Assembly: GCA_965203325.1 (NCBI GenBank)
Contig: OZ241875.1
Coordinates: 800,001 to 864,000 of the forward strand
Length of the DNA stretch: 64,000 nucleotides
Direction: 5' to 3'
Source: a bacterium
Lineage (GTDB): Bacteria; UBA8248
The notes beneath the pieces were generated by a model. The model was not told where the DNA came from. It searched no databases and was given only the letters and a program-made list of their open reading frames with translations. Both the position numbers and the translations under genes were made by a program. Numbering within the stretch: position 1 is the stretch's first letter; every line of letters starts with the position of its first letter. Shown here one piece after another: positions 7,542 through 11,964 of this stretch.

Positions 7542-8213
7542 CTACGCCAAACCGAAGATTCTGAGAAGATTTAGCACAAAAACCTGCTCGGCCGTAGCCA
7601 GGGCGACGAAAATCGGCATCATGATCGTGTGCAGCGCGCCCAGCAGCAACAGGCCCAGCACGATGAAGAACCCGAACGGCTCGCTGCGCGAGTACTGCCA
7701 CGCCAGTCTTCTCGGCAAAAGCCCCATGACAATCCTCCCCCCGTCGAAGGGGAGGATGGGAATCAGGTTGAACGCCGCGAGCGCGGTGTTGATGGTGAAG
7801 CTCGCCCGCAGCATCAACATGAGCGGCTCGCCCACGAAGGTGAAGCCCAGGCCCGAGCCGCGCAGCAGAGAAAACAAAAAACCGCTGATGATCGCCAGGA
7901 TGAAGTTCGTCGCCGGCCCGGCGAGGGCCACCCACATCATTCCCCGTCTGGGATGACGGAAATTGCGCGGATCCACCGGCACCGGCTTCGCCCAGCCGAA
8001 GCCAACGCCCCCCACCATGGAGATGACGAAAGCGAGCGTCCCCATCAAATCGAGATGGACGATGGGATTCAGATTGATACGCCCCAGCATGCGCGCGGTG
8101 TTGTCGCCCAGCTTCTCGGCCATCCAGCCGTGCGCCACCTCGTGAAAGGTGAGCGCCAGCAGAATGGCCGGTATCGCGATCAGCAACTGCTGAATGAAAT
8201 CCGAGGAGAACAA
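7542..8213 (-). CDS. Site-2 protease family (M50) membrane metalloprotease
   Basis: HEVAH, AGPATN, FNLIPILPFDGG motifs. Confidence 0.93.
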   Translation of the reverse strand: MFSSDFIQQLLIAIPAILLALTFHEVAHGWMAEKLGDNTARMLGRINLNPIVHLDLMGTLAFVISMVGGVGFGWAKPVPVDPRNFRHPRRGMMWVALAGPATNFILAIISGFLFSLLRGSGLGFTFVGEPLMLMLRASFTINTALAAFNLIPILPFDGGRIVMGLLPRRLAWQYSRSEPFGFFIVLGLLLLGALHTIMMPIFVALATAEQVFVLNLLRIFGLA

Positions 8214-8370
8214 GGCAGTCCCTTACCCCGTATGAGAGGCGACAATGAACGAGCGGCATGAACCCCTGACATTCACAAACCGGGCGCTTTACCAAGCAAA
8301 CCCGCTGGATTCTAGGGGCATAGGCAGATAGGGTCAAACGCGATACGCGCCGTGAAAACCGGCCCCGCGA

Positions 8371-8925
8371 CTATCTCGCCTGGCCGAACGAATCCTGGAA
8401 GAAAATCTCGGCGGGATCCTTGCGCGCGGGCGGCTTGTTGTCCTTCGCCTGCACGTCGGGGTGCAGATCTTCGGTCTTGCCCGGATACCCCACGGCGAAG
8501 AGGGCCGCGACGCGAAACGGCTCGGGGATGCCGAAACCCTCCAGCACCTTCTGCTCGTCCCATCCCGCCATGGCGTGCACGGTCAGCCCGAAGTCACTGC
8601 CCTGGAGCAGGAGATTCTCGAGCGCCATGCCGACGTCGAGCAGGTATCGTTGCTGCCCGAAACGCTCGGGCTGTTCCTCGGGATTGCCGAGAACAACCAT
8701 CTTGAGCGGGGCCGCGGCCGCCCACTGGCGGTTCCCCTCGTTCAGGCATTCGTCGAACTTCGCCTGCGCCTCTTCAGACTCCACCACGATGACGCGCCAG
8801 GGCTGGCGGTTGTTCGATGACGGCGCCCAGCGGAACGCCTCGAGCATGGCTTCGAGCTTCTCGGGCTCGGGCGGCACGCCGTTGAAGGCGCGCCGGCTTC
8901 TTCGGTTCTTGATGAGTGGGTGCAT
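8371..8925 (-). CDS. Nitroreductase family protein
   Basis: RRSRR and APSSNNRQPW motifs; GAGGA RBS. Confidence 0.9.
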   Translation of the reverse strand: MHPLIKNRRSRRAFNGVPPEPEKLEAMLEAFRWAPSSNNRQPWRVIVVESEEAQAKFDECLNEGNRQWAAAAPLKMVVLGNPEEQPERFGQQRYLLDVGMALENLLLQGSDFGLTVHAMAGWDEQKVLEGFGIPEPFRVAALFAVGYPGKTEDLHPDVQAKDNKPPARKDPAEIFFQDSFGQAR

Positions 8926-9119
8926 CCGTTACTTCCTCCTTGGGAATAAAAAAAGACGAAACAAAGTAGCTATTTATAACGAACACGATATGCAGACAAC
9001 TACTTCATCAATTACAACCGCAAATACAGAGCAAACCCAGCAAAGATTAGCTCTTATGGACGATTCGTTATACAAATAGAGAACGAAACGAAACAACCAT
9101 GTATCTCGTTTTCTTTAGC

Positions 9120-9149
9120 TTGACATCAATACGTGTCATTACGTATATT
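9120..9149 (+). promoter_or_regulatory. Sigma70-type promoter with overlapping inverted repeat
   Basis: TTGACA (9120-9125), 18 nt, TATATT (9144-9149); TGACA-N8-TGTCA at 9121-9138. Confidence 0.65.
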
Positions 9150-9160
9150 AAATACAACAT

Positions 9161-9282
9161 AGCCACCACGCCTCTCGCATTGGTGCTTATTGATGATGCT
9201 AAACTTAAACGGGGCGACTATTTGACCCCGGAGAGTAGATCGTCAAAGGCTCCCCTTGATGATGCGGACCTTGGTGGCTTTT
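9161..9282 (+). ncRNA. Candidate structured ncRNA upstream of Abi gene (abiF-RNA-like antitoxin)
   Basis: AGCCACCA (9161-9168) pairs with TGGTGGCT (9272-9279) followed by a T run; inner stems CGCAT/ATGCG and CGGGG/CCCCG; begins just after the promoter. Confidence 0.55.
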
Positions 9283-9343
9283 GCTTTAGTTCTTCAGTGA
9301 TTTTTTGTACCTGCATCTTGGACACCCTGATCTTTGAGGTCTA

Positions 9344-10240
9344 TTGAAGATCCGCCATCTTACCTATGAACAACAGTTGGTTCACCTCAAAAAACAGGGT
9401 TTGAGCATAAAAGATAATGCTTTCGCCCTATCCAAACTCAAGACCATTGGCTACCACCGCTTAAAAGCATACTGCTCTCCATTCTGTGTTTGGGACAAAC
9501 ATTCCAAAAAAGTAACCAACCAATTCATCCGGAACGCAAACTTTAACGAAGTCATCAAGGTATATGAGTTCGACCGCCACTTGCGATTGCTGGTCATGGA
9601 CGCCATCGAAAGGGTGGAAGTCTATATTCGCACTTTAATCGCATATCACTTGGGCCATACATACGGTCCTTTCGGGCATACCGACGCATCGAATTTTCGC
9701 CCGGAATTCGACCATACGGATTGGCTTGGTAAGATAATAGAAGAAGCAAATCGCTCCAGGGATAGCTTTATCACGGACTATAAACTCAAGTATCCGCAGT
9801 CTTCTGCCTTACCAATCTGGATGAGCGCAGAAGTGATGTCGTTTGGAAGTTTGTCTTTTTGCTATAAAGGTTTGAAAGGCAATGACAAACAAGCCATTTA
9901 CCGGCAACTGGGACTTCGGGACAATCGCTTGGCGGATTGGCTACATCAGTTGACTGTTATACGCAATGTATGCGCCCATCATAATCGGCTTTGGAACAGA
10001 GAGGTTTCGATTAAGGGGAGACGCGTGCGCGATCCCGTTTGGAATCCACCGGTTACGCCCAGAAACGATCGCGTCTTCTTCATCCTCTTGATGTTGCGTT
10101 ATTTGTTGAAAACCATGGACGATAGAGATGACTGGCGCAATCAATGTACGGATTTAATTGAGCCGATAGCTCAGGAGAGGCGTTGGCGTGTGGCGATGGG
10201 AGTGCCGGAGAACTGGAAAAAACACCCGATATGGAATTAA
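9344..10240 (+). CDS. Abi family (AbiD/AbiF, Abi_2-like) HEPN protein
   Basis: LTYEQQL...IGYHRLKAY, YEFDRHLR, PIW...FGSLS, HEPN RNVCAHH; GAGGT RBS before TTG; lower GC than flanks. Confidence 0.9.
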   Translation: MKIRHLTYEQQLVHLKKQGLSIKDNAFALSKLKTIGYHRLKAYCSPFCVWDKHSKKVTNQFIRNANFNEVIKVYEFDRHLRLLVMDAIERVEVYIRTLIAYHLGHTYGPFGHTDASNFRPEFDHTDWLGKIIEEANRSRDSFITDYKLKYPQSSALPIWMSAEVMSFGSLSFCYKGLKGNDKQAIYRQLGLRDNRLADWLHQLTVIRNVCAHHNRLWNREVSIKGRRVRDPVWNPPVTPRNDRVFFILLMLRYLLKTMDDRDDWRNQCTDLIEPIAQERRWRVAMGVPENWKKHPIWN

Positions 10241-10321
10241 AAATCAAAACGTCCCACACATAATCCCTTAGTTATGCGGTGCATGGCAGCCGACCTAGGA
10301 TTTCGTCGGGAACCTTTACTC

Positions 10322-11143
10322 CTAATCCTCGAACCTCGCGTCGCGCCAGGCGACGGCGGCGCGAAGGCCCTCGCTCCGCGCAATCTCCAGAAAGCGGGCC
10401 TTGTCCTCGGTTCCCCTGCCCTCGATCATGAGGTCCAGGTCGAGCGCGGCCTCCAGCGCGCGGCCCATTCCCATGATCTCATACGTGCGGTTCATCGCCA
10501 GCTTGGTGGCGCGCAGGAGGCTCTGATCCATCGGCGTCATCTTCTCCGCCAGTGACATGGCGGTATCGAGCACTTCGGCTTCGGGAACCACCCGGTTCAC
10601 CAGCCCGATGCGGTGGGCCTCGGCCGCCGGAATCCCGTCTTCCCCCGTCAGGATGATCTCCTTCGCCAGCTTGGGGTTCGTGAGCCAGGGCAGGAGCATG
10701 ACGACAATTCCTGCACCGAACTTGAGTTCCGGCTCGCCGAAAACGGCGTCTTCTGCCGCCACGGTGATGTCGCAAGCCAAGGCCAACTCGCATCCTCCCG
10801 CCAGTGCGTGTCCCCGGACGGCGGCGATAGTGGGTTTCGAGAGATTCCAGAAGCGCATGACGGCGTCGAAATCCTGCCGGAGCGCTTGTCTCCACTCGGC
10901 GAAGCCTGTGGGCGTGTTCTCCGCCTGTTCCTTGAGATCGAAGCCTGAGGAAAACGACTTGCCCTCCCCGGTGAGAACGGCGACGAATATGGAATCTTCG
11001 GCTTCAATGAAATCGCACGCCTCGTTCAACTCGCGCAGCATGACGCGGTTCATGGCGTTCAGCCGCTCGGGGCGGTTCAGGCTCACGAGCGCGACGTTCC
11101 CGCGCACTTCGAACAATAGCGTCTCGAAAGCGGGAATGTTCAT
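10322..11143 (-). CDS. Enoyl-CoA hydratase/isomerase family
   Basis: LNRPERLNA, FSSGFDL, GGCELALACD, FGEPE motifs. Confidence 0.93.
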   Translation of the reverse strand: MNIPAFETLLFEVRGNVALVSLNRPERLNAMNRVMLRELNEACDFIEAEDSIFVAVLTGEGKSFSSGFDLKEQAENTPTGFAEWRQALRQDFDAVMRFWNLSKPTIAAVRGHALAGGCELALACDITVAAEDAVFGEPELKFGAGIVVMLLPWLTNPKLAKEIILTGEDGIPAAEAHRIGLVNRVVPEAEVLDTAMSLAEKMTPMDQSLLRATKLAMNRTYEIMGMGRALEAALDLDLMIEGRGTEDKARFLEIARSEGLRAAVAWRDARFED

Positions 11144-11964
11144 CAGGTTTTATTCCTCGACAGAAACGCCAGAATCGCCTCGGCCGAGGCTTCGGGGCGT
11201 TCGGAATAGAAATGATGGCCCGTGTTCTCGACGATGACCAGTTCCGCCCCCGGAATCCGCCCGGCCATGAGTCTCGAATTCTCCGTCGGCACGAGAACGT
11301 CCGCCGCGCCTGATATGACGAGCGTGGGGACTGGCAAGGCCTTGATCTCCTCAGAAACGTCGAACGCCGCCATGCCTTCGTTGCGCCGCTCGATCTCCTC
11401 TTTGCTGATGGGAAAGCGGCGCTTGAAGCCGTCATAGAAAGCGACCACCCCGGGCCTTTCGTCTATCGTCTCGGGATGAAAGAGCGTCTCCAAAGCCGCC
11501 CGGCGCTCCGCTTCCGTGGCGTCGGGCGCGCCGCCTCTCGCGCGCGTCTCCCGGACGCCGGGGGCGGCTGCGATTTTATCCGCTCCTCCGAAATGAGAAC
11601 ACGCGACGATGAGACTCTTGAGTCTTTGGGGGTGTTTCACCGCGAAGGAAAGCGCTATCGTCCCGCCGTAGGAGCCCCCCATCAAGTGAAACGTGTCGAG
11701 GCCCAGCCCGTCGGCCAGCCCCAGGAGGTCTTCCGCCATGCGTGAAGGCGCGCGGTCGTTGTCGTCATGATGCGCCTTCGTCCTGCCCGTCCCCCGGTTG
11801 TCCGGCATGATGAGGCGGTATTCCGCCGCGAGAAGCCCCCGCAGCTTTCCCCAGACCTCCACCGTGGCCGTCAGGCCGCCCACCATCACCAGGGGTTCGC
11901 CCGCGCCCTCTTCCTCGTAATATATATCGAGCTTTCCCCGGCTCTCGACTTCCAGCGTCGCCAC
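11143..11964 (-). CDS. Alpha/beta hydrolase
   Basis: DNRGTG, GGSYGG nucleophile elbow, catalytic D and GHH. Confidence 0.9.
   Translation of the reverse strand: MATLEVESRGKLDIYYEEEGAGEPLVMVGGLTATVEVWGKLRGLLAAEYRLIMPDNRGTGRTKAHHDDNDRAPSRMAEDLLGLADGLGLDTFHLMGGSYGGTIALSFAVKHPQRLKSLIVACSHFGGADKIAAAPGVRETRARGGAPDATEAERRAALETLFHPETIDERPGVVAFYDGFKRRFPISKEEIERRNEGMAAFDVSEEIKALPVPTLVISGAADVLVPTENSRLMAGRIPGAELVIVENTGHHFYSERPEASAEAILAFLSRNKT

Follow-up and report, generated by a model that had tools for sequence, protein, structure and literature searches.

A stretch of 64,000 nucleotides (nt) from a bacterium of the UBA8248 lineage (contig OZ241875.1 of assembly GCA_965203325.1, hereafter the window) carries at positions 9120-10240 what is very probably a self-contained AbiF/AbiFr module, a toxin-antitoxin and abortive-infection system resembling type III systems in that its antitoxin is an RNA. 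The system is already known: the locus is a structural variant of it, and opens no new category. Ribonuclease (RNase) activity, toxicity, binding of RNA to protein, termination with read-through and a role in defence are all inferred here from the literature on other members, and along these lines the module would work as follows. A single promoter would drive synthesis of a small hairpin RNA. The closing stem and U run of this hairpin would make a leaky terminator, and read-through transcripts would carry the abiF mRNA. By analogy with the other members, the AbiF protein would be a HEPN ribonuclease that dimerises, and it would be held inactive by the hairpin via its closing stem (P1), its inner helix (P2), its 3' bulge and its CUCU loop. 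If the RNA were lost or displaced, during phage infection for example, the ribonuclease would be freed and the cell arrested.

The predicted toxin is an Abi_2 (AbiD/F) HEPN ribonuclease of 298 residues, encoded on the + strand at 9344-10240, from a TTG start codon to a TAA stop codon; GAGG at 9336-9339, 4 nt before the TTG, may be its Shine-Dalgarno sequence. The protein matches Pfam Abi_2 (PF07751) over profile positions 2-184 of 184 (E 1.2e-53, with 182.6 bits against a cut-off of 25.6) as well as the PADLOC model AbiD (E 7.7e-72), while NCBIfam returned no match for it. Among known structures, chain 8VZ6_A of the PDB, annotated as "Abi family protein", aligns with residues 12-297 (E 6.5e-39), RNVCAH in the window standing opposite RNSCCH. 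This segment, R207-N-V-C-A-H212 (9962-9979), is the HEPN motif, and it is intact at residues 207-212, so that the AbiF-family gene with its RNVCAH was correctly recognized in a preliminary description made from the letters of the DNA. Homologues of the protein are many, 1501 at E ≤ 1e-3, mostly of about 301 residues. In an alignment of 36 of these sequences, window protein included, R207, N208, C210, H212 and H213 are invariant, and the window protein keeps every invariant residue. P0001, which at 88% identity is the nearest protein in the database, shares both its length of 298 residues and its N-terminus, MKIRHLT, which supports the TTG at 9344 as the true start.

According to excerpts of a review (PMC12737573), 8VZ6 is the complex of PbAbiF, from a Prevotellaceae bacterium, with its non-coding RNA (Zilberzwige-Tal et al., 2025). 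The excerpts describe a HEPN dimer with one AbiFr per monomer, the RNase of which is non-specific and inhibited by nucleotides of the bulge, and they place AbiF at the root of Cas13. Part of a further source (PMC12165695) has Yoon et al. (2024) tying AbiD/F and the RNA family RF03085 to Cas13 ancestry, and a section of a third (PMC12373285, section 13) records that a double mutation, R210/H215, inactivates PbAbiF. The likeness of the window module to PbAbiF-AbiFr is extensive, with an Abi_2 HEPN protein about 300 residues long in which the R and H of RNxCxH are aligned, and with a hairpin encoded in cis, upstream and on the same strand, that has a closing stem, the letters of an inner helix of 3 base pairs (bp) and a single-stranded bulge on its 3' side.

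The RNA is best understood from its relatives. The best 80 of 593 confirmed relatives, with loci from contigs representing one genome per species (L001-L080), were compared, and a covariance model of 56 positions (R1) was built from 37 copies of the hairpin with short loops. At a cut-off of E ≤ 0.01, R1 finds 79 related copies (the window copy is not one of them) in 77 of the 80 loci, all just upstream of the gene and on its strand. It misses L052, the record of which has no upstream sequence, L063, where the contig end cuts the element, and L077, where the motif is visible by eye though below the cut-off. The order of the element is constant: a -10 box, about 11 nt, AACAyA, a G+C-rich P1 of 6-8 bp, CGC-CUCU, a variable middle, then GCG, a bulge of about 4-6 nt (CAACCU, for example), the other strand of P1 and a U run. 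Covariation upstream of homologues, which had been suggested as a check, is strong. Compensatory changes affect 13 of the 14 modelled pairs, and all 8 pairs of P1 covary; 95% of the cells are paired, as against 32-41% when partners are slid, and none of 500 shuffles reaches the observed values. The letters themselves are constrained in places, with G in 77 of the 79 copies at column 17, C in all 79 at column 18, U in 78 at column 20 and G in all 79 at column 66.

The Rfam model of this family (RF03085, abiF; 37 positions, gathering score 37 bits) behaves differently from R1. Scanned in 20 related loci, it passes its gathering score at the element in three, L009 (46.5 bits), L002 (41.8 bits) and L004 (41.2 bits), whereas R1 detects it in each of the 20. 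In the Rfam consensus the loop measures 11 nt and P3 is lacking; loops of the 79 copies span 11-29 nt, mostly above 11, and many contain a short P3 helix. Furthermore, between P1 and P2 Rfam has one unpaired base, which here covaries with the final base of the bulge (in 75 distinct rows, A-U 44, G-C 9, C-G 6 and unpaired 16), and which appears from this alignment to be paired in the present clade. To judge from the counts of the two models, the 37-nt one seems to under-detect the family; longer loops, P3 and the extra pair could improve the annotation of AbiF modules in environmental genomes. Two of the related loci carry tandem abiF-type hairpins upstream of the gene, at 2641-2696 and 2884-2951 in L017, and at 2789-2848 and 2905-2962 in L061.

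The window has the counterpart of this element at 9156-9283 on the + strand, as a predicted non-coding RNA of about 125 nt, the ends of which are inferred and not mapped. Its closing stem is exact: the 5' strand of P1, AGCCACCA (9161-9168), is 100% complementary over 8 nt to TGGTGGCT (9272-9279), with pair probabilities of 0.91-1.0, and the 3' strand (UGGUGGCU, 9272-9279) runs into UUUU at 9279-9282 in the manner of a terminator; both the stem and the T run had already been described. Three further T follow the stem, as in 9 of the 79 copies; 15 have fewer, which leaves the U run within the family range. Next to P1 comes the core CGCCUCU (9169-9175), identical in the window, in L001 and in L003, where CGC (9169-9171) is the family 5' strand of P2 and CUCU the start of the loop. 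On the other side lie the 3' strand of P2, GCG (9264-9266), and the bulge GACCU (9267-9271). The position upstream of an Abi_2 gene, P1, the P2 letters CGC/GCG, the CUCU start and the place of the bulge are those of RF03085. When the two halves are scored separately with R1, as partial alignments, the 5' half (9154-9179) obtains 23.3 bits (E 9e-7) and the 3' half (9256-9286) 10.7 bits (E 0.003). From the end of the paired element (9161-9279) to the start codon there are 65 nt; in relatives this distance is 16-63 nt for the correctly located elements.

Orthology brings a second line of support. The cassette of L001, a metagenome-assembled genome of a Nitrospinota bacterium (WTGD01000335.1), occupies the same chromosomal site, with the same nitroreductase and enoyl-CoA hydratase genes on its flanks (90-91% nucleotide identity) and intergenic DNA about 80% identical to that of the window. 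Its RNA is a normal member of the family, with 58.3 bits against R1 and a 27-nt loop. Aligned with L001 and L003, the window is near-identical from the -35 box through CGCCUCUC and again from UUGAUGAUGCG to the U run, with one large gap between. By orthology, the window RNA is a homologue of the abiF RNA (RF03085, AbiFr). The same comparison reveals an uneven divergence. The promoter and the 5' half of the RNA are 84% identical to those of L001, and the last 61 nt of the coding sequence have only 3 differences; abiF as a whole (9344-10240 versus 2986-3876 in L001) has a synonymous divergence dS of 0.85 and a non-synonymous divergence dN of 0.19, when four flanking genes have dS of 0.21-0.44 and dN of 0.03-0.065. 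This looks like the replacement of one allele by another through recombination within the cassette, or else like the accelerated evolution of a defence gene.

Upstream of the RNA, the promoter proposed in the preliminary description is present, TTGACA (9120-9125) and TATATT (9144-9149) being separated by an 18-nt spacer on the + strand. This sigma-70-type promoter (9120-9149) scores 11/12. Of the three promoter-like sites in 8800-10500 it ranks first; shuffles of that region have a mean of 2.0. Transcription is predicted to start near 9156, inside the conserved AACAUA. The -10 box stops 11 nt short of the first paired base; among the 79 related copies the distance is 11-12 nt for 61, if the best -10 of each is taken. 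No other promoter came to light in 9283-9344. With a stem and U run directly between this single promoter and the gene, the element might be thought of as a cis-acting leader only, a terminator or attenuator without any antitoxin role in trans, all the more as in Clostridioides difficile transcription mostly stops at the terminator upstream of abiF (part of PMC12373285). This is very improbable. Invariant unpaired letters such as those at columns 18, 20 and 66, or a C/A-A-rich bulge, would not be preserved from phylum to phylum in a mere terminator, and in the published members the RNA binds to the protein and works in trans (PMC12373285; PMC12737573).

RCd22, the C. difficile RNA of the phi027 prophage, has two abiF motifs and is made from a SigA promoter; most of its transcripts end at a terminator, and part of the transcription continues into abiF. 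In cis, through termination, it reduces the expression of abiF; the toxic AbiFCd is neutralised in cis as well as in trans, where the RNA acts by binding the protein. It also co-purifies with AbiFCd, and depends on the pairing of its stem rather than on the stem sequence (all from excerpts of PMC12373285). The window has the same succession as RCd22-AbiFCd, promoter, structured RNA of roughly 100-130 nt, terminator and then abiF. It reaches this length by other means, however: RCd22 has two tandem motifs, the window RNA one motif with an internal insertion. Moreover, the RCd22 module belongs to the lysis module of a prophage, whereas that of the window stands between housekeeping genes. A tandem two-motif design like that of RCd22 was considered for the window and rejected, there being a single 5' strand of P1. 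The type III systems ToxIN and AbiQ resemble the module in their logic: the antitoxin is an RNA encoded in cis, a terminator precedes the gene for the toxin, and the toxin is an RNase to which that RNA binds. They differ in that neither ToxN nor AbiQ belongs to the HEPN proteins, and in that the RNAs countering them consist of tandem repeats, from which single units are processed. The only direct repeat found in the window RNA is one of 10-17 nt that flanks the insertion.

This insertion is what sets the window RNA apart. Together with its flanking direct repeat it occupies 9190-9265 (+ strand) and represents a lineage-specific net gain of 66 nt with respect to L001 and L003. The 10-nt direct repeat, TTGATGATGC, is found at 9190-9199 and at 9256-9265 and extends to 17 nt at 82% identity; the 66 extra nt consist of 56 unique ones (9200-9255) and of the second copy of TTGATGATGC. 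About 12 more bases, GCATTGGTGCTT, are likewise without counterpart. The RNA had been called possibly divergent, and divergent it is, by the 66-nt insertion and by an altered bulge. As to its origin, two scenarios were considered. A miniature transposable element would fit the 10-nt direct repeat, but neither terminal inverted repeats nor other copies were found. The other scenario is a local duplication or template switch, for which there are the 17-nt repeat at 82% and the near complementarity of 9239-9246 to 9190-9197. In the window, at up to 3 mismatches, the inserted bases have no other copy, and they have none in the 80 loci; blastn-short of 9176-9266 against the window and these loci gave only chance matches of 11-14 nt, and 9120-9345 has no plasmid or phage match. 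Inside the insertion lies an antisense promoter-like site (9246-9217, - strand; TTGACG, 18-nt spacer, AATAGT, 9/12), which is probably due to chance.

The new bases do not lie idle in the predicted structure. They pair with the older loop at 9190-9197 with 9239-9246 and through several shorter helices, making a long imperfect hairpin arm (9182-9253, + strand) that has the same helices in free folds and in folds constrained to the family structure. Its outer part consists of 9182-9183 with 9252-9253, 9185-9188 with 9247-9250, the helix just mentioned, 9199-9200 with 9237-9238 and 9203-9206 with 9233-9236. Its apex is made of CGGGG/CCCCG (9210-9214 with 9226-9230, pair probability about 1.0) and of 9215-9217 with 9222-9224. 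Overall, the + strand at 9155-9295 folds at -49.6 kcal/mol (z = -3.9), none of 200 shuffles being as stable; for the reverse strand of the region z is -2.0.

It could be asked whether the region is translated instead. An ATG-started open reading frame (ORF) on the + strand spans 9099-9347 and could code for 82 residues, a protein antitoxin for example, in place of an RNA. Practically no credence can be given to this, and the insertion itself is part of the reason: the ORF runs mostly through it, and relatives have about 50 nt there, too short for such an ORF. The 82 residues match nothing in Pfam, PADLOC or NCBIfam, L001 has no separate + strand ORF of at least 50 residues between the nitroreductase gene and abiF, and the substitutions of relatives are compensatory changes of base pairs, which points to selection at the level of RNA.

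Several observations nevertheless weigh against a functional AbiFr in the window. The search with Infernal against the Rfam abiF model, recommended in the preliminary description, was carried out on 8000-11500 and gave no abiF match even at E ≤ 10. (Weak Rfam matches to bxd_5, mir-23c and mir-3661, far below thresholds and inside coding sequence, were set aside as chance.) Over the whole window R1 reaches 16.7 bits (E 0.09) in a shortened alignment, 9154-9194; that it does not span 9161-9279 we would put down to an insertion that is large for a model of 56 positions. The loop is 92 nt long, against 11-29 nt in the 79 copies. The bulge, GACCU, is one base shorter than the CAACCU of L001 and L003, and it places G9267 at a position that is never G, since 67 copies begin their bulge with C, 9 with A and 3 with T. 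The window RNA thus fails three usual features of the family, the Rfam score, the size of the loop and the first base of the bulge.

Its fold adds a further difficulty. The thermodynamic optimum is a shifted register in which CGCAUU (9176-9181) pairs with 9261-9266 and C9174 with G9267, the probability of CGCAT:ATGCG being about 0.93. In the free fold the family P2 (9169-9171 with 9264-9266) is only about 4% probable, and the bulge shrinks to 3 nt. The shift is made possible by a second, competing CGC at 9176-9178 together with the altered bulge (G9267), and the family register costs just 1.8 kcal/mol more. Both inner helices pointed out beforehand, CGGGG:CCCCG and CGCAT:ATGCG, stand in the sequence where they had been placed, but the latter belongs to the shifted register and not to that of the family: by homology with the 79 related RNAs, the partner of GCG (9264-9266) is CGC at 9169-9171, not at 9176-9178. 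In PbAbiFr the inhibitory bases are C32 and U38, to be compared with the GACCU bulge and 92-nt apical region of the window RNA. If the published inhibitory contacts of the bulge are required, the window RNA might be weakened or inactive. An altered bulge and a competing register are real reasons for doubting its function as an antitoxin.

A module in decay would account for these features. The insertion and the change in the bulge would have crippled the antitoxin, and the locus would survive with an abiF that is poorly expressed or weakened. The failure with Rfam fits, as do a loop three times the longest found in relatives, a first bulge base that is G in none of 79 copies, a predicted fold hiding P2 and most of the bulge and, in the protein, a TTG start and an N-terminus that departs from the 301-residue consensus. 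Yet that N-terminus and the 298-residue form are shared by P0001, so that they characterise a lineage and are not a private lesion. The ORF is full-length and has lost none of the invariant residues of the 36-sequence alignment, and dN/dS against the L001 orthologue is 0.22, which indicates, from the codons, that the toxin gene is under purifying selection. To be sure, this ratio averages the whole divergence from L001 and is compatible with recent decay. In the RNA, P1, the CGCCUCU core, the GCG strand and the U run are intact, and the apical part is variable and evidently tolerant: loops in relatives measure anything from 11 to 29 nt, and some contain P3 while others do not. Decay is therefore unlikely. 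We lean towards an RNA that would, by analogy with its relatives, still be a working antitoxin, with the extra arm as a tolerated appendage; retained function is thought likelier because the insertion sits in the most length-variable part of the RNA.

The same facts could also be the mark of innovation. Enlargement of the RNA, change of the bulge and fast divergence of the protein would together amount to a functional remodelling, creating an orthogonal AbiF-AbiFr pair or using the arm as a sensor or switch. The basis for this is an extra arm of about 26 bp, loss of the C, A or U expected at the first base of the bulge, a register that hides the bulge and an abiF that diverged 2-4 times faster than its neighbours at synonymous sites, and more than that at non-synonymous ones. 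We see in it a slim possibility, worth stating for its consequences: the ancestral RNA would no longer cross-neutralise, or the arm would toggle between an inhibitory and a non-inhibitory fold, and one would have a natural AbiF antitoxin RNA gaining a domain, the type of step proposed to lead from AbiFr to Cas13 guides. Independently of this, and coming back to the AbiF/AbiFr module as favoured here, the window and L001 are a natural orthologous pair differing by the insertion in the RNA and the change in the bulge, which suits a clean test of what the protein requires in AbiFr.

The surroundings of the module are those of a solitary cassette. Promoter, RNA and abiF lie in a low-GC segment (8930-10270, GC 0.39-0.53 against 0.58-0.69 in the flanks) between the nitroreductase gene (8371-8925) and the enoyl-CoA hydratase gene (10322-11143), both on the - strand; further neighbours are class I tRNA synthetases, an M50 peptidase, hydrolases and a cupin. 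No tRNA gene, sought as a mark of integration, exists in the whole window, and neither a mobility gene nor an integrase was found next to the cassette. A 29-codon ORF upstream of the promoter (8990-9079) was dropped, its ATG not being conserved in the aligned L001. Just upstream of the -35 box, AGAACGAAACGAAACAACC (9079-9099) contains a short tandem GAAAC repeat; the block is identical in the intergenic region of L001, where identity is otherwise about 81%, and absent from the non-syntenic L003, and it may be a binding site for a regulator, a UP-like element or an identity kept by chance. In several related loci (L002, L020 and L021) the abiF promoter is directly preceded by the end of another gene of the same orientation, upstream of the RNA element. 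The C-terminus of its product, read from the DNA (for example ...LLTGKRRV...), may resemble subunits of type I restriction-modification systems, and such neighbours would fit AbiF cassettes located in defence islands, unlike the solitary cassette of the window.

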